64,000 nt of DNA from positions 298,466 through 362,465 of the forward strand of contig CAVYJB010000002.1 of assembly GCA_963768835.1 (NCBI GenBank), in the 5' to 3' direction. The position numbers and the translations under genes are program-made. The notes beneath the pieces are model-generated. The model searched no databases and was not told the origin of the DNA. It was given only the letters and a program-made list of their open reading frames with translations. This stretch comes from an uncultured bacterium (GTDB lineage: Bacteria; Patescibacteriota; Minisyncoccia; UBA6257; GWB1-50-10). Numbering within the stretch: the stretch's first letter is position 1; the number at the start of each line of letters is the position of its first letter. Below, one piece after another: positions 3,538-62,812 of this stretch.

Positions 3538-3595
3538 GACGTGACATGTATCAAAAGCCGTCCCCAGCCTTGTTGCTGCGGACGGCTTCTTTTAA

Positions 3596-12536: not shown

Positions 12537-12555
12537 GCTCCGGAACACTGCTATA

Positions 12556-42310: not shown

Positions 42311-42634
42311 ATGATTGAATTTCCGGATTTTCAGAAGGTGGAGCTGAAGGTGGGGAAGATCCTCACCGCGGAGCGCGTCGAAGGCTCCGACAAGCTCGTG
42401 AAGCTCTCGGTGGACCTCGGCGGCGAGACCCGGCAGATTGTGGCGGGCATCGGGAAGAAATACACCCCCGAGGAGCTCGTGGGCCGGCAGATTATCGTGG
42501 TCGCGAACCTCGCCCCTCGCATGCTCTTGGGGCTCGAATCGAACGGGATGCTCCTCGCCGCGCACGACGCGGAGGGCGGCCCCATCCTCCTCATGCCCGA
42601 CAAGGAGGCTCCGCCTGGAAGCACTGTGAGTTAG
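42311..42634 (+). CDS. csaA: tRNA-binding domain protein (CsaA/Trbp111-like OB fold)
   Basis: ATG 42311 (MIEFPDFQKVELKVGKILTAERVEGSDKLVKLSVDLGGE..QIVAGI) matches the EMAP/CsaA tRNA-binding domain. Confidence 0.8.
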   Translation: MIEFPDFQKVELKVGKILTAERVEGSDKLVKLSVDLGGETRQIVAGIGKKYTPEELVGRQIIVVANLAPRMLLGLESNGMLLAAHDAEGGPILLMPDKEAPPGSTVS

Positions 42635-42648
42635 AAGGATTGGGAGAG

Positions 42649-42666
42649 TTCGAATCCAAGGCCCCC
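42649..42666 (+). repeat. Truncated copy (TTCGAA-TCCAAGGCCCCC) of the cassette-associated direct repeat, 15 nt after the csaA stop
   Basis: Shares TTCGAA and TCCAAGGCCCCC with the four full repeats downstream. Confidence 0.6.
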
Positions 42667-42678
42667 ACGCCGACCAGG

Positions 42679-42686
42679 TGTATAAT
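42679..42686 (+). promoter_or_regulatory. Extended -10 element (TGTATAAT) 14 nt upstream of cassette gene A
   Basis: caggTGTATAATaagc then ATG at 42701 with a very short leader. Confidence 0.5.
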
Positions 42687-42700
42687 AAGCTTAATTCACT

Positions 42701-43384
42701 ATGACTGTAGTTCTGACGATTGCTTTTCTAATTGTAGGCTGCCTCATCGGATACATATACGCGAGCCGTAGATTTCAGGAAGAGAAAAATCAGGCACTAA
42801 GAGATTTAGGACTACAGAAAGAAGAAGCGCAAAGGGTCTTAGCGCAGCAGAAAGAACAACTACTAAAGGAAGCGGAGCAGGCGAAAGAACAAGAGCTGAG
42901 AGAATTAGGACAACAGAAAGAGGAGGCACAGAAGGAATTGGCGCGTCTAAAGGAAGAGCTGCAAAAAGAAGCCGAGCTGCAGAAAAAAAGGACGCTCGAA
43001 GGTTCGAGAGCTGGCATCAAGGGAAGGGTTGCTGAAAACCTTGCTTTGCTCATCCCTGATTTTCAAGAACAACATCCTGATTTAAAGATCTCTGAGGCGA
43101 GGTTCACAGGAGAGCCGATTGACTATCTATTCTTTGAAGGAATCGACGAAAAGAACATTACGAAAGTCATTTTTCTCGAAGTTAAGTCTGGGAAACATCC
43201 TCAACTAAACCCGACCGAAGCCAGCCTAAAAAATGTCATAGATGACGCGGAGACCAAGGGCGCGAATGTGATTTGGCGAGAATACATAGTTCATGAGCCA
43301 GAGATTCAGGCTATTCCGCCACCGGAAGTTCCAGGAGAAAGCACTGAAGCTCCTACCTCAATACCCCCTACCGAAAAAGCCTAG
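42701..43384 (+). CDS. Membrane-anchored coiled-coil protein with a C-terminal Hjc-like PD-(D/E)xK nuclease domain (COG4741 / Endonuc_Holl-like)
   Basis: 227 aa. N-terminal TM (VVLTIAFLIVGCLIGYIYA), a heptad/charged coiled coil, and a C-terminus (GRVAENLALLIPDF...PIDYLFFEGIDEKNITKVIFLEVKSGKHPQLNPTEASLKNVIDDAETKGANVI) that fits the Hjc catalytic D...E.K arrangement. Low-GC region. Confidence 0.65.
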   Translation: MTVVLTIAFLIVGCLIGYIYASRRFQEEKNQALRDLGLQKEEAQRVLAQQKEQLLKEAEQAKEQELRELGQQKEEAQKELARLKEELQKEAELQKKRTLEGSRAGIKGRVAENLALLIPDFQEQHPDLKISEARFTGEPIDYLFFEGIDEKNITKVIFLEVKSGKHPQLNPTEASLKNVIDDAETKGANVIWREYIVHEPEIQAIPPPEVPGESTEAPTSIPPTEKA

Positions 43385-43401
43385 CTCACCGAAGCCTCCA
43401 A

Positions 43402-43429
43402 AATCGTTCGAACATCGTCCAAGGCCCCC
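43402..43429 (+). repeat. Cassette-associated direct repeat copy 1 (AATCGTTCGAACATCGTCCAAGGCCCCC)
   Basis: 17 nt after the gene A stop and 4 nt before the gene B start. Confidence 0.9.
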
Positions 43430-43432
43430 AAC

Positions 43433-44227
43433 ATGGAATCTTATAACCCACAAGACTTCAAGAATTTGGCAATTTCCGCGGCGGAACAAGCCGGAGATGT
43501 TTTAATGCGTCACTATGGCAATGTCGTCACGGAATTTAAAGAAGGGGGCTTTGATATGGTATCGATAGTTACCAAAGCTGACCGAGAATCTGAGGACTGT
43601 ATCGCCGGGGCTATTAGAAAGCACTTTCCCGCTCACGGCATTTATGGAGAAGAGGGAACTGACGAGAAAAGTGGAGCTGAGTATATCTGGTATATAGATC
43701 CACTTGATGGTACTTCAAATTTCACAAGAAACATTCCACTTTTTGGCATATCAATTGGTCTCATAAAGAACGGCCGTCCCATCGTTGGTGTTTTGCACTT
43801 TCCGGCACTTAAGCTTCTGCTTAGCGCCGAAGATGGGAAGGGTGCTTTTGCAAATGGCACAAAAATTAAGGTTTCGACGCGGTCTCTGGAACAATCCTTG
43901 TACTACTCTGGGGGAAAGTATAAATCAGACTTCTTGAACCAACTTCAACCTGATATTGCATCGGCTGTTGGGTTGATAAAAATTATTGATGCCAGCAGCT
44001 ACGAATTCGCACAAATCGCTATGGGTGATGCCGAGATATATTTCCTGAAAAATGTACCGTATGATGTCGTTGCCGGCATCTGCGTTGTTCGTGAAGCTGG
44101 AGGGGTCGTAAGCGATGCTGAAGGAAATGAATGGCAGCTCTCTTCAAAAGAAATCTTAGCTACCACCCCAAGCTTGCATCCAAAGATATTATCCCTCCTT
44201 CGCGGCCGAGAGTCTACGAATTCATAG
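43433..44227 (+). CDS. Inositol monophosphatase / SuhB / CysQ-family phosphatase
   Basis: 264 aa. GEEGTDEK...WYIDPLDGTSNF and the C-terminal DVVAGICVVREAGGVVSD IMPase-family motifs. Confidence 0.85.
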   Translation: MESYNPQDFKNLAISAAEQAGDVLMRHYGNVVTEFKEGGFDMVSIVTKADRESEDCIAGAIRKHFPAHGIYGEEGTDEKSGAEYIWYIDPLDGTSNFTRNIPLFGISIGLIKNGRPIVGVLHFPALKLLLSAEDGKGAFANGTKIKVSTRSLEQSLYYSGGKYKSDFLNQLQPDIASAVGLIKIIDASSYEFAQIAMGDAEIYFLKNVPYDVVAGICVVREAGGVVSDAEGNEWQLSSKEILATTPSLHPKILSLLRGRESTNS

Positions 44228-44231
44228 CCAG

Positions 44232-44257
44232 AATCGTTCGAACATCGTCCAGGCCCC
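44232..44257 (+). repeat. Cassette-associated direct repeat copy 2 (one-base deletion variant)
   Basis: AATCGTTCGAACATCGTCCAGGCCCC, 4 nt after the gene B stop. Confidence 0.9.
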
Positions 44258-44271
44258 GCAATGATACGAAC

Positions 44272-44859
44272 ATGAATTGGCACCTCCTACTGGGAATAAT
44301 TGGCGGCGTCATCGCTCTGCTCGCCGTCATTCCCTACATCAGAGACATTCTCAAAAAAACGACTCGCCCTAACACCGTTTCCTGGTCTATCTGGGCATTC
44401 CTTCTGCTAATTTCGATCCTGGCCCAAATGAGTGCTGGCGCATCATGGTCGATCATTCTTCTCGTTGGAGACTTCATCGGAACAGGCACGATAGTCATAT
44501 TTTGTTTAATTGGCTACGGATACAGGAAATATGGGTGGATCGAATGGGCATGCCTTACTCTCGCAATCCTCGCAATCATTTCTTGGCAAACCACCCAGCA
44601 ACCCCTTCTGGCTATCGCTTTCGCGGTTGTGGCCGATGCGATGGCTGCCATACCGACCCTGGTTAAGGCATACCGCGATCCTTGGTCGGAACATCCGACC
44701 ATGTGGCTCATCATCGCGCTCGGAGCTCTGCTTAGCATTCTCTCTACTACAATTCTTAATCCGCCCAATCTTTTGTTCCCCGCCTACCTCCTTGCTATGA
44801 ATGGAGCCATCGGTATTGTGGCGCTCGCTGGCAGAGGGGTTAATAGGCCAAACCCCTAA
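44272..44859 (+). CDS. Hypothetical 6-TM membrane protein
   Basis: The frame is open from 44131, but that stretch overlaps gene B and the repeat. ATG 44272 gives MNWHLLLGIIGGVIALLAVIPY... (195 aa), all hydrophobic helices. Confidence 0.55.
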   Translation: MNWHLLLGIIGGVIALLAVIPYIRDILKKTTRPNTVSWSIWAFLLLISILAQMSAGASWSIILLVGDFIGTGTIVIFCLIGYGYRKYGWIEWACLTLAILAIISWQTTQQPLLAIAFAVVADAMAAIPTLVKAYRDPWSEHPTMWLIIALGALLSILSTTILNPPNLLFPAYLLAMNGAIGIVALAGRGVNRPNP

Positions 44860-44860
44860 G

Positions 44861-44885
44861 AATCGTTCGAACATCGTCCAAGGCC
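44861..44885 (+). repeat. Cassette-associated direct repeat copy 3
   Basis: AATCGTTCGAACATCGTCCAAGGCC, 1 nt after the gene C stop. Confidence 0.9.
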
Positions 44886-44958
44886 TGGGAAATGCGTTTT
44901 AACAGGCGATGATACTTGCTTGATAGGAGATCTAGGTTGGTATACTATTTGCATATAA

Positions 44959-45282
44959 ATGAAGTATAAGAACACGCTTCAAAAAGGGTCCGTCCGCTAT
45001 ATCGTTTTTAAAGACGACGGTGTTTGGTATGCGGTAGCCTTGGAATTCAATATTGTAGAGGCGGGAGACGACCCGCGTGAAGCTCTGAACCTGCTCTTTG
45101 AAGCGATCCAGGGTTATGTGAGGTCGGCGCGGAAAATTAAGGCGCGGCCACAGATTCTAAATCAACGAGCCGATTCGGAATACGAGGACCTATGGCAGAG
45201 CCTACAAGAGCGTAAACGAAGCCTTGCGTCGCGTTCCATGCCTGTTTTTACGTTCGGCGAACGGTCACTAGCAGCGGCCTAG
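44959..45282 (+). CDS. hicB: HicB-family (UPF0150) antitoxin-like protein
   Basis: 107 aa. YIVFKDDGVWYAVALEFNIVEAGDDPREALNLLFEAIQGYV matches the HicB N-terminal domain. A TATACT box lies upstream. Confidence 0.6.
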   Translation: MKYKNTLQKGSVRYIVFKDDGVWYAVALEFNIVEAGDDPREALNLLFEAIQGYVRSARKIKARPQILNQRADSEYEDLWQSLQERKRSLASRSMPVFTFGERSLAAA

Positions 45283-45288
45283 AGCGAT

Positions 45289-45522
45289 ATGCCGCGAGGT
45301 GTTTTTAACTGGACCTTCGACGACATTGTCCGGTTTCTTAAGGACAATCGGTTTACCTTGAATCATGTGGAGGGGAGCCATTATTTTTATATTGGAACAT
45401 CTGGCGGGAGCCTACGCCAGGTCTGTGTGCCCTTCCACGGAAAGCGAGTAATTAATCCGCGAACCCTGAAAGGTATTATTCGACAGTCGGGGATTGCAAA
45501 AGATCGCTGGTTGAGACGTTAG
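45289..45522 (+). CDS. hicA: HicA-family (YcfA-like) mRNA interferase toxin
   Basis: 77 aa. IVRFLKDNRFTLNHVEGSHYFY...QVCVPFHGKRVINPRTLKGIIRQSGI matches the HicA fold motifs (GSH..., PxH, tl..il.q.g). Starts 6 nt after hicB. Confidence 0.7.
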   Translation: MPRGVFNWTFDDIVRFLKDNRFTLNHVEGSHYFYIGTSGGSLRQVCVPFHGKRVINPRTLKGIIRQSGIAKDRWLRR

Positions 45523-45544
45523 TTTTCTTGGATATAATCCCAAA

Positions 45545-45572
45545 AATCGTTCGAACATCGTCCAAGGCCCCC
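45545..45572 (+). repeat. Cassette-associated direct repeat copy 4
   Basis: AATCGTTCGAACATCGTCCAAGGCCCCC, 22 nt after the hicA stop. Confidence 0.9.
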
Positions 45573-45596
45573 AGCTAAGGTTTGCCTGGCAAAAGA

Positions 45597-45625
45597 TTGA
45601 CAAATAGCACTAAATAGTGCTATTT
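45597..45625 (+). promoter_or_regulatory. Sigma70-like promoter (TTGACA-17-TATTTT) overlapped by a perfect 9-bp inverted repeat ATAGCACTA-aa-TAGTGCTAT (operator-like)
   Basis: ttgacaaatagcactaaatagtgctattttact. SD AAGGAG lies before ATG 45686. Confidence 0.65.
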
Positions 45626-45685
45626 TACTTTTCAGTCATTTACCAGCGGTATTTTATCCATGAACACTAGAGAAAGGAGTTCGGT

Positions 45686-46432
45686 ATGTGCGGATTCATC
45701 AGCTGGATCGAAACATCTCTAATCTCTCCGAAGTCGGGCCTCTTTTACCTGACCGACGCGCAGGCCTACTCGGACCGAGGGAAGGAGGTTCTTGCGGGAG
45801 CCCAGGACAACGACATTCTGGGCCACGGGGCGATCCGCGCGTTCTACGACCTGGGGCAAGTGGGGAAAGAGCACGAGGTGACGGATTTCTGGAACCTCGA
45901 GAAGCTCCCCTCCGAGCTCCAGGAAAAGATCAGGAATTTTGATCTGTACTGGGGCAGGATGTTCCGGAGCGGCTGCTTTCAGGACGATGATCTCCGTCAT
46001 ATTCTATTGCATGCCCCTTCCGGTTGGAGAGAGAAAGCATGGACGCAGCTTCTCATGCAGCATCCCACGAACAGCGATTTCCTTATCATCGTGCGGGATG
46101 CCCCCGCCGAGTGGAAAGAGAGGGCGTCTGCGCAACTCTTTGAGCAGGATCTCTCGAATGAAGATCTCCGCTACATCATGGCGTACGGCACTCCCGAGTT
46201 GCAGGAGAAAGCCTGGAAGCGTCTGATGGAACAGGGTCCTTCCAGCGGCGAACTCTGCGCAGTCGTTGCGTTCACTCCCCAGCAATGGAAAGAGAGGGCA
46301 TGGGATATGCTCACGACACGGGAGCTCTCAGACGAAAACCTTCGTTTCCTGGAGATGCACGCCCCCCATGCATGGGCGCAGAAGGTTCGCGTGGAGCTTG
46401 TGAAGAGGGGGAAGGGAAGTCTCGGCCTCTGA
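45686..46432 (+). CDS. Hypothetical repeat protein (four ~36-aa DLR..I....P..WKERAW..L repeats)
   Basis: 248 aa. The repeats are DDLRHILLHAPSGWREKAWTQLL / APAEWKERASAQLF..EDLRYIMAYGTPELQEKAWKRLM / TPQQWKERAWDMLT..ENLRFLEMHAPHAWAQKV. Confidence 0.6.
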   Translation: MCGFISWIETSLISPKSGLFYLTDAQAYSDRGKEVLAGAQDNDILGHGAIRAFYDLGQVGKEHEVTDFWNLEKLPSELQEKIRNFDLYWGRMFRSGCFQDDDLRHILLHAPSGWREKAWTQLLMQHPTNSDFLIIVRDAPAEWKERASAQLFEQDLSNEDLRYIMAYGTPELQEKAWKRLMEQGPSSGELCAVVAFTPQQWKERAWDMLTTRELSDENLRFLEMHAPHAWAQKVRVELVKRGKGSLGL

Positions 46433-46474
46433 ACGAAGTTTCGAACATACACTCACCACTCAAGGAGGCAACCA

Positions 46475-46738
46475 ATGGCAACCCCAGACAATGCTTCCAC
46501 GGAGGCTAAGGCGTGGTCGCTGGACGTTCCGCAGTCGAACCAAGAGTTCGTCCGGAAGTGCCTTGCCCTGAAGATGGCGACTCCGTCGCTCGCGGATCTG
46601 ACGCGAGCGCAGAAGCTCAAGCTACTGACGGATTTCTTTGTGTCCGTGCTGGCCGAAAGCTATTTCGATGGGAGCGGCTTTGATGTCGCGGTCATCGCGG
46701 CCATGTTCAAGCTTCAGGAAAGATTCAAGGATGAGTAG
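46475..46738 (+). CDS. Small hypothetical protein
   Basis: 87 aa. Strong SD (CAAGGAGG) 7 nt before the ATG. Confidence 0.6.
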   Translation: MATPDNASTEAKAWSLDVPQSNQEFVRKCLALKMATPSLADLTRAQKLKLLTDFFVSVLAESYFDGSGFDVAVIAAMFKLQERFKDE

Positions 46739-46761
46739 TCCGCATATCTGTATCCACACCA

Positions 46762-46799
46762 ACGCCGCCACGCTTAACAGCTGAAGCGGCGTTTTTATT
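46762..46799 (+). terminator. Rho-independent terminator closing the + strand cassette array
   Basis: acgccgc...gcggcgt hairpin followed by tttttatt. Confidence 0.55.
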
Positions 46800-46983
46800 C
46801 ACAGAAGCGCCGATATCCAGTTTTAGCCTCTTGGGCTTGGATATCCCAAGTGATTTGGCAGCTGAACGGATTGTAACGTAGGAGCGGCGCACTGCTGACT
46901 CTGGGGCCTTGTGTGTGCGAATCTGTCGAGGACACGGTCTTCGCTGACACGCTCAGCTGCTTGCGAGTAGCAAGCGCAGAACG

Positions 46984-47417: not shown

Positions 47418-49049
47418 TCAACAAATGAAGCCTCCTTTCCGCGGCCCGTTCCGCCTTGGCCAAGGCCCGCTGCGACCGGACATCCTTTGTCCCTCGGACT
47501 CCTGGCTCACGTCCCGGTCCGCCTCATCCTCGTACGGTTTGCGGAGCACAGGGTCCTTCAGCATAGCGAGCGTCTCTTCGTTGCTCAGGCCGGATTCGGG
47601 GCCGCGGTACGGACCCTTCGGAAAGATGAACCCCGGTACCGTGTTCCGAAGGACGGCGAACGCCGCGAGACATAGCGCATCGCACAAATCGTCTCGAGAC
47701 TCCTTCCCGAACCCCACGAGCTGCTCGATCACAGTCTCGCAGCCCTTCCTCGGGAACAGGATCTTCCCCTCCCGGATCAGGTATCCGAGAATAGCGAACC
47801 GGGTGCGCTTGTCGTATGGCAGCTTGTCCGCCGTGGCCTTCATGCGGCCCAGGGAATTCACCTGCTCCGGCAGGGATTTCTGGTACCCGATCGCCTCGAT
47901 CCGCACATCCACCGGCCGATAGCCGGTCATGAGGTGGTTGTACCGCCGCTCGAGCTCGTCCACGGTCTCCGGGAAGTTGACGTGGTCGTTGAAAGGGTCG
48001 GGATAGAGGAAAAGTTTCGTCTCCTCCCCGGAATTGCAGACGATCCCGCTCACGATGGCAGTGCAGTCCGAGGTCTGCTTCTTGGAAATCGCGGGGTCGC
48101 ACCCCATCACGAACCCGCGCACGTACCCCGCGTCCGGGAGCCTGTCGTAGTACTGGATCCATTCCCGTTCCACCACCGATTCCTGGGTGGAGATGAACTT
48201 CAGGTTCATCTCGCGCTGGTAGTCGGCCTCGTCGAGAAACTTCTTCCGCTCCGCTGCGAGGACCTCGGGAGTGTACCGCTCGGGCCAGGCGATCGATCCG
48301 TCCTCCCGCTCGAGCGGGTAGGCGCGGAAGACCCCGCTCATCTGTCCGGACTCAATCGCGCCCCCGAGGCGCATGAGGGTGGAGAGAGGGTGGAGGAGAT
48401 TCCCGACCACAACGATTCGCGTCTCCTTCCCCACGCCTCCGAGGAAGAGGATCTCGCTCTGAAAGTAATGAAAGTCTTTCTCCCTGCCGTCATCGCTGCG
48501 GACCGACTTCATGTCCTGGATGTCATCTGCGATTATTAGCTGCGGCCGATAGTGCTTGTATTTCAAACCGCGGACGGATTGTCCCGCCGAGACGGCCAGA
48601 ATCTTCGTGTCGTAGCGGGGGATGATAATCTCGTTCTGGGCCCACTTCTTGAACTCTTCCCGGGATAACCCGAAGTCCTTGCGGAGGAGCCCATCCCGTT
48701 CGAGGACGTCCCGGATATTCGCGAGATGCTGCTCCGCCTGTTGCTGGGTGTCGCTGAAGATGACGATGAAATGTATTCCCTGAGCCATCGCAGCGTAGAG
48801 GGGATAGCACTGCGTGAAGACGAATGATTTTCCGCAGCCTCTGAATCCCGAGACGACAAGCAGAGGCGCGTCGCCGGCCGCCAGTTTGAACATCTCTCTA
48901 TGAAAATTCGCGGTCGGCGCGAACATGGCTTCCGGGAAATAGGTCCGGGCGAAGAGGTAGAGATTCTTCGTCACGAGGGCTTTCCGGAACGTCCGGCTCT
49001 CCTGCGCGCGCCGGATGATGTCGTCTAAGGAATCATTGTTCATGGTCAT
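47418..49049 (-). CDS. terL: Phage terminase large subunit (TerL) homolog
   Basis: 543 aa. ATPase Walker A LLVVSGFRGCGKSF and Walker B-like LIIADD. C-terminal RNaseH-like nuclease region (GFVMGCDPAISK...DCTAIVSG...). Confidence 0.8.
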   Translation of the reverse strand: MTMNNDSLDDIIRRAQESRTFRKALVTKNLYLFARTYFPEAMFAPTANFHREMFKLAAGDAPLLVVSGFRGCGKSFVFTQCYPLYAAMAQGIHFIVIFSDTQQQAEQHLANIRDVLERDGLLRKDFGLSREEFKKWAQNEIIIPRYDTKILAVSAGQSVRGLKYKHYRPQLIIADDIQDMKSVRSDDGREKDFHYFQSEILFLGGVGKETRIVVVGNLLHPLSTLMRLGGAIESGQMSGVFRAYPLEREDGSIAWPERYTPEVLAAERKKFLDEADYQREMNLKFISTQESVVEREWIQYYDRLPDAGYVRGFVMGCDPAISKKQTSDCTAIVSGIVCNSGEETKLFLYPDPFNDHVNFPETVDELERRYNHLMTGYRPVDVRIEAIGYQKSLPEQVNSLGRMKATADKLPYDKRTRFAILGYLIREGKILFPRKGCETVIEQLVGFGKESRDDLCDALCLAAFAVLRNTVPGFIFPKGPYRGPESGLSNEETLAMLKDPVLRKPYEDEADRDVSQESEGQRMSGRSGPWPRRNGPRKGGFIC

Positions 49050-49587
49050 CGGTATCCGGTTCTTGTTGTGCGGGAAGCGCGTCCCTGATCGCCCGTTCGA
49101 TGATGTCCTTCTCCTCTTCGGTAAGAGGCTCCTCCGCGATAGCGACGCGTCCCGCGAGTTCCAGTTTATGCGAGTACGTGGCGCTGTGAGATTGTAACCA
49201 AAAACGGATGGCCGGAAAGTAGCCGGCCTTAATGAGTCTTATGATTTTCGATTCGCTCAGGTCGTTGACGGCCAAGATGCCTTGCGCCATGGCTTCGCCC
49301 GCGGCGGTTTTGAAGGCCGGGTCTGAATTGCACATGCGATAAAAAGTCGTGCGGCCCACGCGAGCATTCTTGCACGCGTAACTGATCACGGGGCGTTGCT
49401 GCAGGAAACCAAGAATCACTTCCTTCTTGGCCTTCTGTCGGATCGCCACCGCATCCGTATCTATCTCATCCGGTCCGACGACGCTGACATTAATGGATTC
49501 AGCGATGACAACATGATCGAATGCCATAACAGGTAAGCACTCGCTCGTCGCAGTGTTTTGGGGGGCGCTGATGAGGTATACACTCAT
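49033..49587 (-). CDS. terS: Putative phage terminase small subunit (HTH protein)
   Basis: 184 aa. HTH-like ISYACKNARVGRTTFYRMCNSDPAF. Overlaps the terL start by 17 nt. A TATAAT box lies 7 nt upstream of the ATG (near-leaderless). Confidence 0.5.
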   Translation of the reverse strand: MSVYLISAPQNTATSECLPVMAFDHVVIAESINVSVVGPDEIDTDAVAIRQKAKKEVILGFLQQRPVISYACKNARVGRTTFYRMCNSDPAFKTAAGEAMAQGILAVNDLSESKIIRLIKAGYFPAIRFWLQSHSATYSHKLELAGRVAIAEEPLTEEEKDIIERAIRDALPAQQEPDTDDHEQ

Positions 49588-52718: not shown

Positions 52719-53180
52719 ATGGATGAACCAACGGAAGTTAAGAAGAATACGTTTATCCTTTTTGCGGCGCTTGCAATTCTTATTGTGGGCGGGGTCCTTG
52801 TATATAAGAACGTAGATCCTGTGGTTGTGGAGCTCAATACACTGAAACTTCTTCCTAAGGCCGAGACGTTTACCGAGCTCTATTTCAATAATCAAACCGC
52901 GCTGCCCAATAGGGTCGTTCCGGGGACGGCCATCGCATTTTCCTTCACCATCCACAATCTCGAAGGTGTAACGACCACCTATCCCTACACCGTATACTTT
53001 GTACAAACTAATGGAGATCAGTTTGTCTTCGCGAATGGGAACGTAACGCTTTCCGACACCACCTCGACCAGCATCGCCATTTCGCAGTACTTTCCCTCAC
53101 CGGGGGTGACCGGAACCGTGGTGGTGAATCTAACTGGGCGGAGCCAAAAAATTGATTTCTTGATTTCAAACACTAAGTAA
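52719..53180 (+). CDS. Hypothetical membrane-anchored protein
   Basis: 153 aa. N-terminal TM (NTFILFAALAILIVGGVLVY). Heads the glycosyltransferase island. Confidence 0.5.
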   Translation: MDEPTEVKKNTFILFAALAILIVGGVLVYKNVDPVVVELNTLKLLPKAETFTELYFNNQTALPNRVVPGTAIAFSFTIHNLEGVTTTYPYTVYFVQTNGDQFVFANGNVTLSDTTSTSIAISQYFPSPGVTGTVVVNLTGRSQKIDFLISNTK

Positions 53181-53191
53181 CCATCCCCATT

Positions 53192-53953
53192 ATGTCGAGC
53201 GCTAAACTCAAAAAAATAACCGTCCTCATCCCGTGTCACAACGAGGAGAGCGGTATCGCGCATGTCATCGCGGATATCCCGAACACTCGTCTGAAGCAGC
53301 TCGGGTTCACGACTGAAGCTATTGTTATTGACAATAACTCGACCGACCGGACGGCGGAAGTTGCGCGGGCGGCGGGTGCGCGCGTCATCGAGGAGCCGAG
53401 GAAAGGGAAGGGGAACGCCATGCGTACGGGTTTCAGCGCTGTGAGCCCGGATACCGAGTACGTTATCATGCTGGACGGTGACCACACCTACAAGCCATAT
53501 GAGATTCCGCGACTCGTAGAGCCGCTCATAAGCGGCTTCTGCGACGTGGTGGTGGGCTCTCGGCTCGGGGGGAAGATGAACAAAGGCGCGTTTTGCTTTG
53601 AGAACCGCGTGGTGAACTGGGGATTCACATTCTTGGTGCGTCTGATTTATCGGGCGAATGTCACAGACGTCCTGAGCGGTTTCTTCGCCTGGGATAAGGA
53701 GGTGGTGGACGAACTGAACCACCACCTGGTTTCGGAAGGTTTTTCCATCGAGATGGAGATGATCACGAAGACAGAGAAGCTCGGATTCGAAGCATACTCT
53801 GTGCCCATCACCTACGACGTGCGCAAAGGCGAGACGAAGATCAATGCCGTGAGGGATGGCATCATCATTCTCTCGGTGCTCATTCGGAACCTGTTCTGGC
53901 ACCCCGATGCACCCGTAAGCTCCCGCAGGGTGAAGCGGGTGGCCATCGACTAA
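53192..53953 (+). CDS. GT2 glycosyltransferase (dolichyl-phosphate sugar transferase-like)
   Basis: VLIPCHNEESGI...IVIDNNSTDRT...MLDGDHTY DXD motif. Confidence 0.85.
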   Translation: MSSAKLKKITVLIPCHNEESGIAHVIADIPNTRLKQLGFTTEAIVIDNNSTDRTAEVARAAGARVIEEPRKGKGNAMRTGFSAVSPDTEYVIMLDGDHTYKPYEIPRLVEPLISGFCDVVVGSRLGGKMNKGAFCFENRVVNWGFTFLVRLIYRANVTDVLSGFFAWDKEVVDELNHHLVSEGFSIEMEMITKTEKLGFEAYSVPITYDVRKGETKINAVRDGIIILSVLIRNLFWHPDAPVSSRRVKRVAID

Positions 53954-53955
53954 CA

Positions 53956-55098
53956 ATGAAGGAGTCGGGCTGCAAGCGCATCGCCATCGTAGCTGACGCT
54001 GTTTATCCCTGGAACAAAGGGGGAAAGGAGAAGCGTATCTACGAAATCACGAAGCGGCTTGCCGCGCGCGGCTATCTCGTCACTGTCTACTGCATGCAGT
54101 GGTGGAAAGGTGAGCGGGAGATTGTACGCGAGGATGTTACCTATCACGCCATCAGTGCGTACCACCCACTCTACGCGGGAAGTCGCCGGTCTTTCACACA
54201 GGCAATGTTTTTTGCACTGTCCTGCCTCCGCCTTTTAGGGGCGGAGTTCGACGTTGTGGATGTGGACCAGGTTCCTCATCTTGTACTTTTTACAATGAGG
54301 CTCGTCTGTCTTCTAAAGCGGAAGAAAATGTTTGCGACCTGGCTTGAGGTGTGGGGTGAGAAATATTGGAAAGGGTACGTTGGGACGTTCCGGGGAGAGA
54401 TTGCTTATCATATTGAGAAAATAAGTGCGAAACTTCCAGATATCATCGTATCCATCTCGGCCCGCACCACGGAAGGGCTTCGGACTATACTAGGAAGGGA
54501 AAATGGGGTTTTTACAGTACCCATCGGGATTGATGTGGAGCCCATCTTGAGAATTCCGCCCGATGCGCGTTCTTCGGACATTGTGTATGCAGGGCGGTTG
54601 CTGGCGCATAAAAATGTGGATGTCTTGCTCGGCGCCGTTAGCATTCTGAAGAAAAGCCATCCGGAAATTTCCCTGATGATTGTGGGTGATGGACCGGAAA
54701 AAGAAAATCTCGAAAGGCTTGCTCTTGAACTGGGAATTCAAGGGAACGTGTTATTCCTCGGTTTCCTAGAAGACCACGATACGCTCTACGGCCTCATGAA
54801 GGCGTCCAAGGTTTTCGTTACACCTTCTACCAGGGAAGGATTTGGTATCGTCGTGATTGAGGCGAACGCTTGCGGCCTGCCAGCTATTGCGGTTACGCAT
54901 GACCAAAATGCGGCAGGGGACTTAGTGACCCCGAATGAAAACGGTGTGCTCTGTATGATGTTGGGCAAGCAAGGGCTCGCGGATGCCATTGGAAAATTAT
55001 TGAGTACCCGGAATGAGCCTGACCGGTATGTACAATATGCCAAACGGTATGATTGGGATAGTATCATACAGAAGATAGAGAGTGTATACAGAGCATGA
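53956..55098 (+). CDS. GT4 glycosyltransferase
   Basis: 380 aa. The C-terminal EGFGIVVIEANACGLPAIAV EX7E motif is characteristic of retaining GT4 enzymes. Confidence 0.85.
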   Translation: MKESGCKRIAIVADAVYPWNKGGKEKRIYEITKRLAARGYLVTVYCMQWWKGEREIVREDVTYHAISAYHPLYAGSRRSFTQAMFFALSCLRLLGAEFDVVDVDQVPHLVLFTMRLVCLLKRKKMFATWLEVWGEKYWKGYVGTFRGEIAYHIEKISAKLPDIIVSISARTTEGLRTILGRENGVFTVPIGIDVEPILRIPPDARSSDIVYAGRLLAHKNVDVLLGAVSILKKSHPEISLMIVGDGPEKENLERLALELGIQGNVLFLGFLEDHDTLYGLMKASKVFVTPSTREGFGIVVIEANACGLPAIAVTHDQNAAGDLVTPNENGVLCMMLGKQGLADAIGKLLSTRNEPDRYVQYAKRYDWDSIIQKIESVYRA

Positions 55099-55793
55099 AT
55101 TCTATTCGTGTAACAACTAGTTGGGACGATGGGCACATTCTAGATTTGAGACTCGCCGAACTACTCCGCAAATATGGCTTAGCGGGCACTTTTTATATTG
55201 CACCGAAGGACCGGCAGATTGAGCAGGGCAAGCGGTTGAGTAAGGAACAGGTGCGTGAACTAGGGAATAGTTTTGAGATTGGGGCGCACACAATGACGCA
55301 CCCCAAACTATCAACAATAGACAGCGAGATAGCCGTACAAGAGATAAGGGAATCTAAGAAAACGCTCGAGGAGTGGACCGGAAAAGAAGCCTCGAGTTTT
55401 TGCTACCCAAGCGGGGACTATACGGAAGTTCATAAGGAGTTGGTCAAGAGTTTAGGGTTTAAGCTGGCGCGAACTGTTCAGCGGTTTAAAACGGAAATTG
55501 GGGATGACCCGTTCGAACTACCGACCACGGTGCATGCATACCGACATTGGGCGGACGCTGGACCAATCTTAAACGAAGCTGGAGCCCTCAGCTTTATACA
55601 GCAGTATCTGAACTGGGATAAACTCGCGATTGCGTTGTTCGATAAGGTCCTTGTGGGCGGAGGAATATTCCATCTGTGGGGCCACTCTTGGGAAATTGAT
55701 AAGAATAAGGATTGGGGCCGCTTGGAGCAGGTATTTAAGTACATTGGACGACGTTCTAATATTCAGTACGTTATAAACCGCCAACTGGTATGA
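55095..55793 (+). CDS. Polysaccharide deacetylase (CE4 / NodB homology)
   Basis: TTSWDDGH (motif 1), GAHTMTHP (motif 2), FCYPSGDY (motif 3). Confidence 0.75.
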   Translation: MNSIRVTTSWDDGHILDLRLAELLRKYGLAGTFYIAPKDRQIEQGKRLSKEQVRELGNSFEIGAHTMTHPKLSTIDSEIAVQEIRESKKTLEEWTGKEASSFCYPSGDYTEVHKELVKSLGFKLARTVQRFKTEIGDDPFELPTTVHAYRHWADAGPILNEAGALSFIQQYLNWDKLAIALFDKVLVGGGIFHLWGHSWEIDKNKDWGRLEQVFKYIGRRSNIQYVINRQLV

Positions 55794-58123
55794 ACCCTAA
55801 ACAACTCACTATTGCTATCGTCGCTCCCTACTTTCCCCCAGGCGGTGGAGGGTTAGAGCGCTACGCCTACGAGATCGCCAAACGCCTGCAGGGTGAATAC
55901 AGATGGCGTGTTGTTGTTATTACCTCCGGAGAACGCTATGGCAAGGATAGCAAAGATGAACTAGACGGTCTTACGGTTTATCGTTTGGGATATCAATTTA
56001 AATTCTCCAACACCCCCTTCTCGTTCGGCTGGTTCAAGACGGTAAGGCACGTTTTAAAAATTGAGAACCCGGATATCATCAACGTTCATATGCCAGTGCC
56101 CGGCATTGGCGATATTGCTTCATTATTCGCAGACAAAAAGCCAATTATTGTGACTTATCATGCTGGCAGCATGCATAAAGGTAGGCCCCTACCCGATTTC
56201 TTTATCTGGCTCTATGAACATGGGCCGATGCGCCTATTGCTTTCGCGTGCCACCCGCATCGTATGTTCCTCCGACTTTACTCGCTTCCGATTCCTACAGC
56301 CCTATCTTTCGAAAAGCCTGACAATAACACCGGGCGTTGATATGGAAATATTCACGCCGAATATGGAGAATAGGGCCGACAAGCCAACCGTACTATTTGT
56401 GGGGATGCTGAATAAATCCCACCGCCATAAAGGACTAGGCGTGCTTATTAATGCCGTCGATATTTTGAGGGCCAGAATTCAAAATCTTCAACTCGTTATT
56501 GTGGGTGACGGTGATATGAGGCCCGAGTATGAAGCGAGTGTTCGGAAGCGAGGCATGGAGAAAATGACGACGTTTAGGGGCCGACTGAGTGGTGGTGCAC
56601 TAGTGGATGCATATCAGAGAAGCAACGTTCTTTGTCTTCCTTCTCTTGAGCCAGCCGAAAGTTTTGGGATGGTTCTCATAGAAGCAATGGCCGTGGGTTG
56701 TCCTGTTATTGGTTCCAGGGCGGGAGGAATACCCGGGGTTATCGATCATGGGAGGAATGGACTTTTGGTGCTGCCTGGTGACTTACAGGGACTCGTTGCC
56801 GCGATTGCACGCGTATTAGGAGACAAGGACTTGTCGCGCAAGATGGGAGAGGATGGGCTTAGGAGGGTCAGGGAGGATTTTACATGGGGTGAAAAAGTAA
56901 AAGAAACCCAGCTCCTATTTCAGAAAGTGCTGGTTGATTCTAAGCGACCAACGGTTGAAAGAAAGAGGCTGTCCGTGCTTATAATTTGCAAAGAATACCT
57001 CCCGCATGTCGCAGGGGGATTAGGAGTCCACTACTTTGAACTGATTCAAGAACTTAAGAAATATTGCAAAATCGATCTTATTTGTGCGAGAGAAAAAGAA
57101 AGCGCAGAGGATGAAGAGATTTTCGACAATTTGCATATACACCGAATGAAAATCCCATCCTCCTTCCCTCTCAATCACATAGTCTTTAACCTCAAGGCTT
57201 TTTCACGGAGTCTTGGGATTAAACGAGATATCGTGCACCTCTGTTCTCCGTTTGGATTAATAAACGTTTTGATAAAGACCTCACCGGTTGTGGTAAAGAT
57301 CCACACTGTATATGCAGCTCAAAGAGGCGCCCGTCTATATAACCGAATTTATTTTCCTATAGCCTCGCTCATTGATAGGTTCATCATTTTTAGGAGCGAT
57401 TATGTGATGACGACCTCTAATTTCATGAAGAAAGACATACATAAGATGTATGGGATTGAGCCGTCAAAAATCTCGGTGATATTTAATGGAATCAACAAAA
57501 AGTTCTTTGTCGGTGATGCCTACAACAAAAAGTCGCTTCGAGAGAAGATGAAATTACCGGTTGAGGCGAAGATTGTTCTTTATGTTGGCAGATTTGTCCA
57601 GAGGAAGGGCGCCTTGAATCTAGTGCGGGCCGCATCTACGGTTCTCCAAAAATTCCCAAAGACCCTCTTCGTATTTATTGGCGGCGGTTTTACGGAGGGA
57701 ACAGAGTACGAAGGTCTTATACATTCTTCCATCACCGCTCTTGGACTACGTAATAATGTATTGATATTGCCGTGGGTCACCCATGATCAAGTTCTGGAGT
57801 ATTACAAAGTGGCGGATATTTTTGTACACCCGGCAACATATGAGCCATTTGGCAACAACATTGTTGAAGCGATGGCTGCGGGGCTGCCTGTAATTTCTAC
57901 CAAATCAGGTGGGCCGGAAGAAATTATTCAAGACAATGGGATAATTCTTGAGAGCAACGAACCATCCCTGATCTCTGAAAGTATTATCAGTCTCTGTGCC
58001 AACGAAGAGAGGAGCAGGCACTTTTCGTATTTATCAAAAAAAAGAGCTGCAGAATTTTCTTGGGATTCTGCAGCAAAAGAAACAGTTAAGATATATAACA
58101 AGGTTTTATCCTCAAATAAATGA
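55790..58123 (+). CDS. Tandem double-GT4 glycosyltransferase
   Basis: 777 aa. Two complete GT4 units with C-terminal motifs ESFGMVLIEAMAVGCPVIGS and EPFGNNIVEAMAAGLPVIST. Confidence 0.85.
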   Translation: MNPKQLTIAIVAPYFPPGGGGLERYAYEIAKRLQGEYRWRVVVITSGERYGKDSKDELDGLTVYRLGYQFKFSNTPFSFGWFKTVRHVLKIENPDIINVHMPVPGIGDIASLFADKKPIIVTYHAGSMHKGRPLPDFFIWLYEHGPMRLLLSRATRIVCSSDFTRFRFLQPYLSKSLTITPGVDMEIFTPNMENRADKPTVLFVGMLNKSHRHKGLGVLINAVDILRARIQNLQLVIVGDGDMRPEYEASVRKRGMEKMTTFRGRLSGGALVDAYQRSNVLCLPSLEPAESFGMVLIEAMAVGCPVIGSRAGGIPGVIDHGRNGLLVLPGDLQGLVAAIARVLGDKDLSRKMGEDGLRRVREDFTWGEKVKETQLLFQKVLVDSKRPTVERKRLSVLIICKEYLPHVAGGLGVHYFELIQELKKYCKIDLICAREKESAEDEEIFDNLHIHRMKIPSSFPLNHIVFNLKAFSRSLGIKRDIVHLCSPFGLINVLIKTSPVVVKIHTVYAAQRGARLYNRIYFPIASLIDRFIIFRSDYVMTTSNFMKKDIHKMYGIEPSKISVIFNGINKKFFVGDAYNKKSLREKMKLPVEAKIVLYVGRFVQRKGALNLVRAASTVLQKFPKTLFVFIGGGFTEGTEYEGLIHSSITALGLRNNVLILPWVTHDQVLEYYKVADIFVHPATYEPFGNNIVEAMAAGLPVISTKSGGPEEIIQDNGIILESNEPSLISESIISLCANEERSRHFSYLSKKRAAEFSWDSAAKETVKIYNKVLSSNK

Positions 58124-59241
58124 GTAACAATCAACATCAAGAGGTGTGTATCGCGCAAGTTTGTGCATATTATCCGCCTCATGTCGGTGGGTTAGAGCGT
58201 GTTGCAAAAATGTGCGCCGAGGAACTTTCCAAACGGAGATATTCGGTCCGTGTCATCACATCTTCCGACGCCGGTATTAAAAAGGGTATGAAGAAAGACG
58301 GGAACCTTCAAGTCACGGCATTGTGGAATTTTGAATTTGCTCATACGCCCGTCGCACCAACGCTCTTGTGGCACCTATTGAGGCTTCCACGTAATTCTCT
58401 TATTCATTTGCACCTAGCACACGCGTACTATCCTGAATTAGTGCTGCTGGCCTCAAAACTCCGTGGTATCCCATATGTTGCGCACTTTCATCTCGATGTT
58501 GGCCCCTCGGGATTCTTTGGCCCGATATTTTTAGCCTACAAAAGACTTTTGTGGGGGCCGGTTTTACAATATGCTCGCCGTGTAATCACCTGCTCACAAG
58601 ATCAGGCTAGCGTAGTGGAAAGGAAATTTGGGGTCAAAAAAGAAAACATCGTCGTTATCCCTAATGCAGTGAGCGACGACTTCTTTTCTAATCGTGTGTA
58701 TATACCTCCGATCAAAACATTTCACCTTCTTTATATCGGCCGACTTTCCGTGCAAAAGCGGGTTGAACACCTTATAGAGGCGGTGTCCAGGCTTTCCATT
58801 CCTGCCCACCTTACTATTGTTGGTGACGGAGAAGAGCGTTCAAAATTGGAAGAATTCGTCCGAAAACTGAAGCTTACTAATGTTTCTTTTGAAGGAAGAA
58901 AAAATGATGTGGAAATGCAGGAGTACCATCGGAAAAACGACGTCTTCCTTATATCTTCGGATAAAGAGGGAGGTACCCCTCTCGTTGCACTCGAAGCGAT
59001 GGCATCAGGCCTCCCAGTTATAGGGACAAATGTCTCTGGTATTCGGGAGTTTCTTCAGGGAGTCGGAGTTTTAGTAGATAAACCGTACGTAGAAAACTTT
59101 GCAGAAGCAGTAGAAATGCTTTGGTTTGCGCCGGAGAAGCTGGTCGCACTTTCCAGACAAAGCGTCGAAAAGGCAAAAAAGTATGGATGGTCGCGATTTA
59201 CTGACCAACTTGAAGAGGTGTATAGACAAGCGCTCAAGTGA
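58120..59241 (+). CDS. GT4 glycosyltransferase
   Basis: 373 aa. GGTPLVALEAMASGLPVIGT. Confidence 0.85.
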   Translation: MSNNQHQEVCIAQVCAYYPPHVGGLERVAKMCAEELSKRRYSVRVITSSDAGIKKGMKKDGNLQVTALWNFEFAHTPVAPTLLWHLLRLPRNSLIHLHLAHAYYPELVLLASKLRGIPYVAHFHLDVGPSGFFGPIFLAYKRLLWGPVLQYARRVITCSQDQASVVERKFGVKKENIVVIPNAVSDDFFSNRVYIPPIKTFHLLYIGRLSVQKRVEHLIEAVSRLSIPAHLTIVGDGEERSKLEEFVRKLKLTNVSFEGRKNDVEMQEYHRKNDVFLISSDKEGGTPLVALEAMASGLPVIGTNVSGIREFLQGVGVLVDKPYVENFAEAVEMLWFAPEKLVALSRQSVEKAKKYGWSRFTDQLEEVYRQALK

Positions 59242-61700: not shown

Positions 61701-62806
61701 AGAAATTAAAAGTCAGCATACTTTCCCACAATCTTTCCAGCAATTGCCTCGGTCGCGCATATATCTTGGCCAAAGCGCTCTCGGATGTCTACGATGTTGA
61801 GATTGTTGGTCCCGTGCTATCGTCTGGAATCTGGGAACCGGTTTCCGGTGATACGACGATAATCTACAAAAAGTTAGGGAAGAGCTTGAACCCGTTTAGG
61901 CTTATGAGCGCCGTCGACGGCGATATAGTATATGCGGTTAAGCCCCGTACCGCAAGCCTTGGGACCGGTTTATTGGTTAAATTGTTTAAACGAAAGAAAC
62001 TAGTTCTCGATGTTGATGACTGGGAAGTTGGTTTTGGAAAAGATTTTGGAATTTTGGGAATAGGGTACGGTATTCTAAGCTTCTGGGACTTAGACAGCAT
62101 AATCCCAACCTGGCTTATGGAGAAAATGATTCCGTTTGCCGATGCTATCACCGTATCAAGCTCGTTTCTGCAGAAAAAATTCGGTGGCACGCTCATTCCT
62201 CATTTCCGCGATACTGATGTGTTTAACCCAAGAAGATTCGACCGCAAGGCGCTACGGGGAAAACTTGGCGTAGAGGGGAAGAGGGTTGTCATGTTCTTAG
62301 GGAGCATTGAGCCATATAAAGGCATTGATACGCTCCTGTCTGCTTTCGACGCTATACGAAGGGATGATGCAATACTTATGCTTGTAGGTGCGAGTGATAA
62401 AGCAAGAGCATCGCTCCCCCAAAGAGGATACCTCAGGGTTATCGGCCCCCAACCTTTTGAGAAAGTTCCTGAGTTCCTAGCTGCCGCCGACGTTGTTGCT
62501 CTCATGCAAAGACAAAATTCTGCATCAACTCAGGGGCAATTGCCGGCGAAGATCTTTGATGCAATGTCTATGGAAAAACCAATTATTGCAACGCGAGTAT
62601 CGGATATTCCAAGGATTTTGAATGGGTGTGGGATTGTTATCGAAGATACCCCTGAGGAGCTAGCATCTGCCATACGGTGGCTTTTCGATCATCCGGAACA
62701 AGCCGCGGTTATGGGAAGGGCCGCGCGGGAGCGCTGCATAGAAGAGTACAGCTATTCGGCCATGCGCCCGAAGCTGGAGAAGGTTTTCGAGAGCTTGAAG
62801 TATTAG
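61697..62806 (+). CDS. GT4-like glycosyltransferase
   Basis: 369 aa. Glycos_transf_1-like C-terminal domain (VVMFLGSIEPYKGIDTLL...KPIIATRVSDIP). Confidence 0.8.
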   Translation: MKKLKVSILSHNLSSNCLGRAYILAKALSDVYDVEIVGPVLSSGIWEPVSGDTTIIYKKLGKSLNPFRLMSAVDGDIVYAVKPRTASLGTGLLVKLFKRKKLVLDVDDWEVGFGKDFGILGIGYGILSFWDLDSIIPTWLMEKMIPFADAITVSSSFLQKKFGGTLIPHFRDTDVFNPRRFDRKALRGKLGVEGKRVVMFLGSIEPYKGIDTLLSAFDAIRRDDAILMLVGASDKARASLPQRGYLRVIGPQPFEKVPEFLAAADVVALMQRQNSASTQGQLPAKIFDAMSMEKPIIATRVSDIPRILNGCGIVIEDTPEELASAIRWLFDHPEQAAVMGRAARERCIEEYSYSAMRPKLEKVFESLKY

Positions 62807-62812
62807 GGGGTC

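Follow-up and report, generated by a model that had tools for sequence, protein, structure and literature searches.

Casposons, which are Cas1-dependent elements, prefer tRNA 3′ ends, can occur in tandem, and duplicate a 14- to 15-bp segment of the target. Integrases whose crossover lies at the very 3′ end of tRNA or transfer-messenger RNA (tmRNA) genes reportedly belong to the sublocation classes distinguished by Williams in 2002, and Pavlovic et al. in 2004 and Bellanger et al. in 2011 are said to have treated streptococcal integrative and conjugative elements (ICEs) and cis-mobilizable elements (CIMEs) under an accretion-mobilization model. The tycheposons of Prochlorococcus integrate at the 3′ part of tRNA genes and lie side by side with nothing but a partial copy of the tRNA between them; as new elements arrive, older ones move deeper into the island, decayed remnants and surplus partial tRNAs build up, and the elements contain multiple genes, including their own integrase and replication genes (bioRxiv 10.1101/2020.12.28.424599). 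The locus analyzed here lies in a 64,000-nt stretch of contig CAVYJB010000002.1 (assembly GCA_963768835.1, positions 298,466 to 362,465 of the forward strand) from an uncultured bacterium of the Patescibacteriota. This whole stretch, referred to as the window, contains an array of small, mostly single-gene cassettes separated by copies of one repeated site, and the tail of that site copies the 3′ end of a tRNA. The window was read on its plus strand and was compared with related loci, which carry L numbers (L002, L006, and so on).

Bacteria of the candidate phyla radiation (CPR), or Patescibacteria, have tiny genomes with few recognizable mobile elements, and their gain of accessory genes is poorly understood. 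A first-pass annotation of the window had described an array of mobile, mostly single-gene units parted by one recombination-type site, and the analysis supported that description. Serial site-specific integration, which the annotation had also proposed, is the reading that the evidence favors.

The repeated site and its tRNA-like tail

The 28-mer AATCGTTCGAACATCGTCCAAGGCCCCC was present without mismatches at positions 43402 and 45545 and with three mismatches at 44232 and 44861, always on the plus strand. These were the only four matches in the window when up to three mismatches were allowed, and no match was obtained in 100 dinucleotide-preserving shuffles, so the four copies listed in the first-pass annotation were confirmed. 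All four full copies fell inside 3 kb. The first 20 nt were identical in every copy, which read AATCGTTCGAACATCGTCCA followed by a G/C-rich tail, and the mismatches were confined to the last 9 nt. The copies lay 17, 4, 1, and 22 nt, in order, past the stop codons of four plus-strand genes. A short copy, GTTCGAATCCAAGGCCCCCA, was located 13 nt past the csaA stop codon, and its TCCAAGGCCCCC part occurred three times in the window, against 0.5 occurrences expected; the window has five sites, namely, one fragment on the csaA side and four copies at cassette ends. The GC content was 0.455 to 0.509 over 43 to 46 kb and 0.60 to 0.68 over 35 to 42 kb, in agreement with the AT-rich region noted earlier. 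The first-pass annotation had counted five repeat-terminated units; this held for four of them, and the fifth (open reading frames [ORFs] at 45686-46432 and 46475-46738) was followed by no copy. A weak distal copy had been suggested near 47176, and this sequence, like a look-alike at 46437, proved to be at chance level, since neither was within an edit distance of 6 of the 21-mer on the plus strand and shuffled windows yield 11 to 22 matches at that distance. The short copy had been regarded as the proximal boundary of the array, a role that was supported, with its identity now refined to a 3′ fragment of tRNA-Gln.

In standard tRNA numbering, the short copy comprised G53, the T-loop TTCGAAT, the T-stem 3′ strand CCAAG, and the acceptor 3′ strand GCCCCCA. 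It agreed with tRNA-Gln 3′ ends (L012, L017, and L034) at 16 to 17 of 20 positions and with other tRNAs at 8 to 13 of 20. The 8-bp GTTCGAAC, previously described as a palindromic core, is indeed palindromic and is the sequence of the tRNA T-loop. Because ARAGORN found no tRNA gene in the 64-kb window, the short copy there is only a fragment; tRNA, tmRNA, and Rfam scans of the window also gave no match, and the link with tRNA emerged only on comparison with the tRNA genes of related loci. Bare tRNA 3′ fragments of this kind are referred to below as L-type sites.

The full site was built from yA-rAATCGTTCGAACATCG, TCCnn, a 7-nt tRNA acceptor 3′ strand, the discriminator, and C. The segments TCCnn, CCYGYGC, A, and C corresponded to the T-stem 3′ strand, the acceptor 3′ strand, the discriminator, and the first C of tRNA-Tyr and tRNA-Leu, with matching tails in L062 (...GGTTCGAATCCTGCCCTGCGCAC), L009 (...TCCTGTCCCGCGCAC), and L021, and the tail ..CCCCCA-G-C matched the tRNA-Gln genes in L012, L017, and L034. 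At the Y positions of the tail, a change between C and T keeps G-C or G-U pairing with the fixed 5′ strand. Compared with a tRNA, the full site had AAATC(G) in place of the T-stem 5′ strand and CATCG inserted between TTCGAA and TCC, and in the logo these non-tRNA parts were the most conserved positions, unchanged whichever tRNA (Gln, Tyr, or Leu) the tail imitates. Comparison of the sequences shows that the left 17 to 21 bp, ending in CATCG, are element specific and almost invariant across Patescibacteria, with the right ~15 bp copying a tRNA 3′ end, that of tRNA-Gln in the lineage of the window and that of tRNA-Tyr or tRNA-Leu in other lineages. In L004 (2710-2750), an L-type fragment was preceded by AAAATCG-CATTTG (AAAATCGCATTTGTTCGAATCCTGGCCTGTGCAC), with the element arm and a CAT..G block seemingly ahead of the T-loop; this arrangement may be a clue to the relation between L-type and full sites.

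An exact 19-mer from the conserved part of the site was scanned against public one-genome-per-species, metagenome, viral, phage, and plasmid collections. It matched 13 stretches in the one-genome-per-species contigs, nearly all of the named ones being Patescibacteria metagenome-assembled genomes (Minisyncoccia, Saccharibacteria, or “Patescibacteria group”), and 60 metagenome contigs without a taxon label, mostly from JGI and a few from Hainich groundwater. Only chance-level matches were obtained in the viral, phage, and plasmid collections. The 805-kb chromosome OY970216.1 had five exact matches in three loci and seven copies there at up to two mismatches. The first-pass annotation had named a ubiquitous genome-wide motif as the outcome that would speak against its proposal; what was found instead was copies confined to 3 kb in the window and to three loci in OY970216.1. 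A repetitive extragenic palindromic (REP), bacterial interspersed mosaic element, or terminator-type repeat was rejected on this distribution and on the lack of a hairpin.

When four mismatches were allowed, 152 site instances were collected. The logo of the 123 unique instances showed a sharply bounded 34-nt block, yA-rAATCGTTCGAACATCGTCCA-skCCyGyGCaC, with information content at background on both sides; in some lineages, including that of the window, the tail was nnnCCCCCA(GC) instead. Full sites were 32 to 34 bp long, all four of those in the window (F1 to F4) being 32 bp, and they stood alone or formed co-oriented arrays with at most five copies. A total of 66 nonredundant inter-site units measured 195 to 4515 nt (median, 489 nt), and 60 of them contained an ORF of at least 50 aa; the median coding fraction was 0.78, and stop codons clustered 0 to 25 nt ahead of the site. 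A CRISPR array, in which repeats of 28 to 37 nt alternate with non-coding spacers of 30 to 40 nt, was rejected as an identity for the repeats on the basis of this spacing and ORF content. The cargo across arrays included HAD and NUDIX hydrolases, 6-phosphogluconolactonase, RpiB, DJ-1, a nucleotidyltransferase, a TIR-like protein, toxin-antitoxin genes, and insertion sequence (IS) elements. The GC content is low, and such cargo (a toxin-antitoxin pair, a nuclease, a phosphatase, a NUDIX protein, a nucleotidyltransferase, and IS elements) is typical of accessory genes. The genes that recurred around the arrays were the housekeeping genes for PilB, SecD, L25, SLT, RecO, and ComEC, and the arrays therefore lie at many different chromosomal places.

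IS3-family transposase genes flanked arrays in three loci, and an IS1595-family transposase gene filled one inter-site unit (L002, 95-2284; L007, 7323-8000; L074, 1-558; and L003, 5928-6728); arrays appear to gather insertion sequences. In addition, a Cys-rich protein of 583 to 592 aa, with treble-clef zinc-ribbon modules at both ends and no informative match in Pfam or PDB, was encoded next to or within three arrays, always on the site strand (L007, 2370-4121; L012/L047, 2269-4044; and L042, 3393-5171 and 5038-5583), and in L007 an L-type tRNA fragment lay 80 nt past its stop codon. A 45-nt block, AATCTAAGCTCATAACCTGCTTACGATCCTAGATTTGG, with the hairpin potential TAAGC/GCTTA or ATCTAAG/CTTAGAT, was common to three otherwise unrelated cassettes, directly upstream of the site (L028, ~500-545; L063 minus strand, ~240-200; and L073 minus strand, ~650-605). 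These cassettes may be a subfamily with an extended site.

Array edges, homology breakpoints, and a CRISPR spacer

For 47 arrays, 600 nt or more of upstream sequence was available. Seven of them began no more than 600 nt past a tRNA gene (Gln, Tyr, or Leu) on the same strand, six of these being independent (L012 and L047 are the same locus), and none of the 47 had an opposite-strand tRNA gene at its proximal end. Seven other arrays, those of the window, L004, L006, L007, L013, L022, and L042, began with a bare tRNA 3′ fragment. These left-edge fragments started exactly at G53/T54, after unrelated sequence, and their 15-nt tail was nearly equal to that of the next full site. At the other end, convergent tRNA genes were seen 38 to 57 nt past the last site, namely, tRNA-Asn in L023 and tRNA-Gly in L049/L061, and a tRNA-like sequence that ARAGORN did not call lay past the last site in L006 (3590-3680, minus strand).

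Homologous cassettes have different neighbors, with breakpoints at the site or within its last few bases. In L063 and L064, 49 nt of upstream sequence and the whole site were 100% identical, and divergence set in directly after GCAC. In L030 and L055, 299 nt from the 3′ edge of the site onward were 92% identical, the upstream sequences were unrelated, and the site tails differed. The L25 and SLT genes showed an insertion polymorphism: they were 26 nt apart in L019 and 167 nt apart in L070, and in L006 they were parted by 1.24 kb with a methyltransferase-like gene, a full site, and, on the left, a tRNA fragment. In L022/L037, a homolog of the inositol monophosphatase of cassette 2 of the window was found in reverse orientation, with an L-type site on one side and the first full site on the other. 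The shuffled neighbors in L063/L064 and L030/L055, and the occupied state of L006 versus the empty state of L019 and L070, would be indirect evidence for cassette excision and an empty attB. Homologs of the Hjc-like cassette protein (57 to 64% identity) were not adjacent to a site, and the closest relative of the chromosomal backbone, OY970216.1 (ChaA 76% identical), showed no synteny and had no site near ChaA.

One of the 60 metagenome matches was a CRISPR array in which a 35-nt spacer, AAAATCGTTCGAACATCGTCCAGTCCTGTGCACTA, was identical to the entire 34-nt site. The spacer was found in L075 (1863-1897) and again in the independent assembly L091 (10912-10946), near the cas-proximal end of arrays with 37-nt repeats and about 27 spacers (L075, ~1690-3940; L091, ~10760-13000), and a type III cas operon (Cas6, Cas10, Csm2, and RAMP, with DUF6602 in the locus) immediately preceded the array. 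With a GC content of 0.58 and 875-aa MacB-type permeases, the CRISPR contig looks unlike a CPR genome. The match argues independently that the site is part of an invading element. Its sense is that of the plus strand of the site; a type III CRISPR RNA would pair with antisense RNA, and this single case therefore does not tell the targeted strand. A spacer equal to the site suggests that community members treat the cassettes, or the CPR cells carrying them, as invaders, and it bears on DNA exchange between episymbionts and hosts.

How the arrays may have formed

The favored reading, to which a probability of about 0.6 is assigned, is that the locus is an accretion array of miniature integrase-less cassettes produced by serial site-specific integration at tRNA 3′ ends by an unlinked recombinase. 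Each cassette would be 0.2 to 1.5 kb long and usually carry one gene, often with its own promoter, with the 32- to 34-bp attachment site F at its 3′ end. In a Campbell-type event, a circular cassette would recombine through the ~15-bp tRNA-like block of F, the partner being a resident tRNA gene at its 3′ end, a tRNA 3′ fragment, or the F of a cassette already in place. The target would stay intact on the left, and the cassette's own F would come to lie on the right, repetition giving the order target, cassette-F, cassette-F, and so on. The recombinase would be encoded elsewhere and act in trans, most likely as a tyrosine recombinase crossing over at the tRNA 3′ end. With a trans-acting enzyme, the array would behave functionally like an integron or a cluster of attC sites lacking integron-integrases (CALIN), but its sites would derive from att sites of the tRNA type. 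The structure of the site, its resemblance to tRNA, the arrays, their closeness to tRNA genes, and the homology breakpoints are seen in the sequences themselves; the circle, the class of the enzyme, and the order of the insertions are what we infer.

Several results weigh against this reading. At two terminal sites, L063@198 and L073@217, the junction seems to fall after CCTG and not after GCAC. The collections yielded no close relative in which the csaA site is empty, the only other csaA contig being identical to the window, and the proximal end of the window array is a tRNA fragment, with no intact tRNA gene in the 64 kb. The simple model fails to explain the fragments that start at G53/T54, without the AAAATC arm and CATCG, on the left of non-tRNA arrays, and the left fragment in L006 came together with the insertion. 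In 19 of 60 cassettes (32%), the longest ORF ran on the strand opposite the site, which leaves only 41 that have it on the site strand. The site also has no inverted-repeat arms such as simple tyrosine recombinases bind, and no inverted partner. Finally, phmmer searches seeded with XerC, lambda Int, Mu Gin, and phiC31 Int gave no match at an E value of ≤1 among 2,881 ORFs in the 491 kb of the window and the loci, a search in which the sensitivity of single seeds is limited.

The statement in the first-pass annotation that no recombinase lies inside the window agreed with the phmmer result. Pfam scans of 94 flanking ORFs revealed IS3 transposases only and no recombinase, and the families that recurred in an all-against-all BLAST of flanking ORFs were housekeeping families, IS3 transposases, and the Cys-rich protein. 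No element-encoded integrase was found in the window, in the 8- to 14-kb loci, or between a tRNA gene and the first site. Taken over BLAST, Pfam, and phmmer, the searches returned only IS3 and IS1595 transposases and housekeeping genes. The site is asymmetric and contains two 11-nt direct units (ATCGTTCGAAC / ATCGTCCAnnC). The layout of the sites of Xer/dif modules such as IMEX and pdif (28 to 31 bp, with two inverted arms of ~11 bp and a center of 6 to 8 bp) was not seen, the flanks of GTTCGAAC being direct and not inverted. GTGCGCA and ATGTT resemble Escherichia coli dif, and a dif site was rejected because the inner inverted arms are missing.

Since the enzyme is unlinked, inverted arms are lacking, and the fragments at non-tRNA positions are not accounted for, the main rival retained is that a non-canonical enzyme (HUH nuclease or relaxase-like, a casposase-like Cas1, or a target-specific transposase) moves the cassettes, with the asymmetric site as the element end and the tRNA from T-loop to 3′ end as the target. 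An enzyme of this kind would suit an asymmetric site with direct units instead of inverted arms and the lack of any tyrosine or serine recombinase in 491 kb, and the G53/T54 starts in seven independent arrays hint at a second cleavage ~21 to 26 nt from the 3′ edge, in the style of a staggered-cut integrase. It is nevertheless considered unlikely: no such enzyme recurs near the arrays in the all-against-all BLAST, terminal inverted repeats and subterminal hairpins are absent, and the left fragment lacks the 5-nt CATCG of the full site, so that the two are not a plain target-site duplication. The other readings are less likely than this one. Patescibacteria carry competence and pilus genes, ComEC, PilB, and RecO genes adjoin several arrays, and lineage-specific site variants, such as GAAAATCG with gtcgggtgcac in different cassettes of L030, L045, and L048, are what gene conversion predicts; these observations would fit a scheme without a dedicated recombinase, in which the 34-mer and the tRNA ends serve as portable homology and RecA swaps in transformed cassettes. 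This scheme is improbable, because homologous exchange could not provide a new cassette with the site and could not bring about insertion at a naive position like that in L006. Furthermore, the motif is scarce and its copies lie in clusters, which sets it apart from uptake sequences; base-for-base conservation of the non-tRNA arm across classes points to recognition by a protein; and 34 bp is at the lower limit for RecA-dependent exchange.

That the 34-mer is no recombination site and serves instead in regulation or at the RNA level, as a terminator, processing signal, operator, REP-like repeat, or tRNA-like 3′ tag, is very improbable. In many cases it lies on the coding strand, 0 to 25 nt past stop codons, and it mimics the 3′ strand of a tRNA, as such an element might; it has no hairpin and no T-run, lacks a 5′ acceptor partner and an Rfam match, and is not dispersed genome-wide, and the breaks in synteny exactly at the site and its status as a CRISPR target are foreign to a purely regulatory role. 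An A-run and hairpin after 20 of 124 copies, at first taken for terminators of the cassette genes, belong to convergent minus-strand genes, whose terminators they are. Least probable of all, and largely refuted here, is an integron-like system with attC-type sites that fold as single strands and an IntI-like integrase, an alternative that the first-pass annotation had raised. The small, mostly one-gene units with the site just past the stop codon, the toxin-antitoxin cargo, and the CALIN-like presence of integrase-free arrays in several places of one genome recall integrons. Against these stand the lack of folding beyond that of shuffled sequences (z scores of 0.25, 0.57, −0.54, −0.67, and 0.57 for the five window sites with flanks, folded as single-stranded DNA), the lack of a hairpin and of R″/L″-L′/R′ inverted repeats or any inverted partner of the 34-nt block, the lack of an IntI-like gene in 491 kb, and conservation across classes of sequence rather than structure, the opposite of attC. 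An adjoining IntI-type tyrosine recombinase with attI is needed in an integron, though a CALIN can do without it. In a check of integron traits, the units were short and the site stood 3′ of the ORF, yet co-orientation was seen in only the 41 of 60 cassettes mentioned above, the rest having the longest ORF on the other strand.

Layout of the window and comparison with known systems

The features of the window around the array are collected in Table 1.

Table 1. Features at and beside the cassette array, in window coordinates
Feature	Position	Strand	Basis or content
csaA-like gene, tRNA-binding domain	42311..42634	+	Pfam tRNA_bind 3.1e-29; last high-GC gene ahead of array
L-type site, tRNA-Gln 3′ fragment, proximal array boundary	42648..42667	+	Sequence; tRNA-Gln comparison
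Cassette 1	42668..43398	+	TATAAT box 42682-42687, then gene
Cassette 1 gene, Hjc-like endonuclease with N-terminal membrane-anchored/coiled-coil part	42701-43384	+	Pfam Endonuc_Holl 1e-21
Full site F1 CAAAATCGTTCGAACATCGTCCAAGGCCCCCA	43399..43430	+	Repeat search, logo
Cassette 2	43431..44228	+	Start codon of gene 2 nt past F1, no promoter of its own
Cassette 2 gene, inositol-monophosphatase family	43433-44227	+	Pfam Inositol_P 3.4e-56
Full site F2 CAGAATCGTTCGAACATCGTCCAGGCCCCGCA	44229..44260	+	Repeat search
Cassette 3, gene for 195-aa multi-pass membrane protein at 44272-44859	44261..44857	+	ORF and Pfam scan
Full site F3 AAGAATCGTTCGAACATCGTCCAAGGCCTGGG, tail diverged	44858..44889	+	Repeat search
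Cassette 4	44890..45541	+	Own promoter-like TTGATA-N17-TATACT, HicB-like gene, hicA
Cassette 4 small HicB-like gene	44959-45282	+	ORF directly ahead of hicA
Cassette 4 hicA	45289-45522	+	Pfam HicA_toxin 1.4e-10
Full site F4 CAAAAATCGTTCGAACATCGTCCAAGGCCCCCA, last detectable site	45542..45573	+	Repeat search, edit-distance test
Distal unit without terminal site	45574..46800	+	248-aa repeat protein 45686-46432; 87-aa ORF 46475-46738; terminator-like hairpin
Lone terminase large subunit gene	47418-49049	−	PHROG phrog_38, 1.5e-64
Helix-turn-helix (HTH) protein gene, adjoining terminase gene	49033-49587	−	Pfam

The distal unit is either the last cassette, having lost its site, or the original flank, and it contains a promoter- or operator-like block, TTGACAAAT-AGCACT-AAATA-GTGCT-ATTTT. 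This block (45590-45640 of the window) is similar to one just past a site in L002 (2705-2740), so that two related genomes share the pattern TTGACAAAT-(A)GC(A)CT-AAATA-AGTGCT-ATT after a site; its inverted repeat lies between the −35 and −10 positions, and the downstream ORFs are unrelated. The terminase and HTH pair is a phage or satellite remnant beside the array, and no other phage genes were seen near the pair. A second compositionally distinct island of low GC content (0.43 to 0.51) occupies positions 53000 to 64000 of the window and contains genes for glycosyltransferases, a polysaccharide deacetylase, a DUF2206 membrane protein, and a flippase-like protein.

Apart from the origin of this one array, the shared 34-bp site marks variable genes in raw sequence and sets cassette boundaries to the base. 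It also gives a handle for finding the enzyme, which can be sought as a gene co-occurring with the site; if that enzyme acts on the 34-bp site and a tRNA end, it would be a possible compact tool for site-specific insertion. A wider proposal, which is put forward tentatively and at somewhat less than even odds, is that the arrays represent a phylum-wide cassette platform of Patescibacteria, an analog of integrons. Hundreds of one-gene cassettes with the 34-bp site that mimics a tRNA 3′ end would be inserted and shuffled at tRNA ends and existing sites by a single unlinked recombinase or non-canonical enzyme, with travel between cells frequent enough for the site to become a type III spacer of an unrelated bacterium. 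There is a substantial chance that a distinct cassette platform will be recognized once the enzyme is found.

In a literature search that did not cover subscription journals, no paper with the sequence or with such arrays was found, and nothing relevant on cassettes in Patescibacteria. A close parallel is with tycheposons. As in those elements, the tails of the sites are tRNA 3′ ends, arrays begin at tRNA-Gln, tRNA-Tyr, and tRNA-Leu genes, and the units are parted by direct repeats that partly copy a tRNA 3′ end, which is the trait of tRNA-element accretion. The units here differ in being 0.2 to 1.5 kb long and in mostly carrying one gene, and the 491 kb of flanking sequence contained no integrase; the repeat differs in having a 17- to 21-nt non-tRNA arm and a 5-nt T-loop insertion that are conserved across tRNA targets and classes. 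CIMEs are likewise integrase-less, att-bounded segments in tandem that are thought to need an integrase in trans; unlike the cassettes, they are decay products of a specific ICE, adjoin that ICE, and are few per genome, whereas the cassettes described here are tiny, numerous, and diverse, share a uniform site, and extend across the phylum, and no master element was identified. Integrases acting at tRNA 3′ ends share with this system an element/target identity block made of the last ~15 nt of the tRNA gene and asymmetric flanks, but their attP adjoins their own integrase gene in phages or islands, and none is linked here. Casposons are large and have Cas1, a polymerase, and terminal inverted repeats, none of which was present in the arrays. 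Integrons and CALINs resemble the arrays in their small, mostly one-gene cassettes, the site that immediately follows the ORF, breakpoints at its 3′ edge, the toxin-antitoxin cassettes with their own promoters, and the occurrence of arrays away from any integrase; they differ in that the arrays have no attC structure, IntI, or attI, the site is tRNA derived and conserved in sequence, and a third of the cassettes are reversed. Against this background, the miniature integrase-less units, the non-tRNA arm of 17 to 21 nt and the T-loop insertion that are uniform across tRNA targets and classes, and the CRISPR spacer equal to the site appear to be new.

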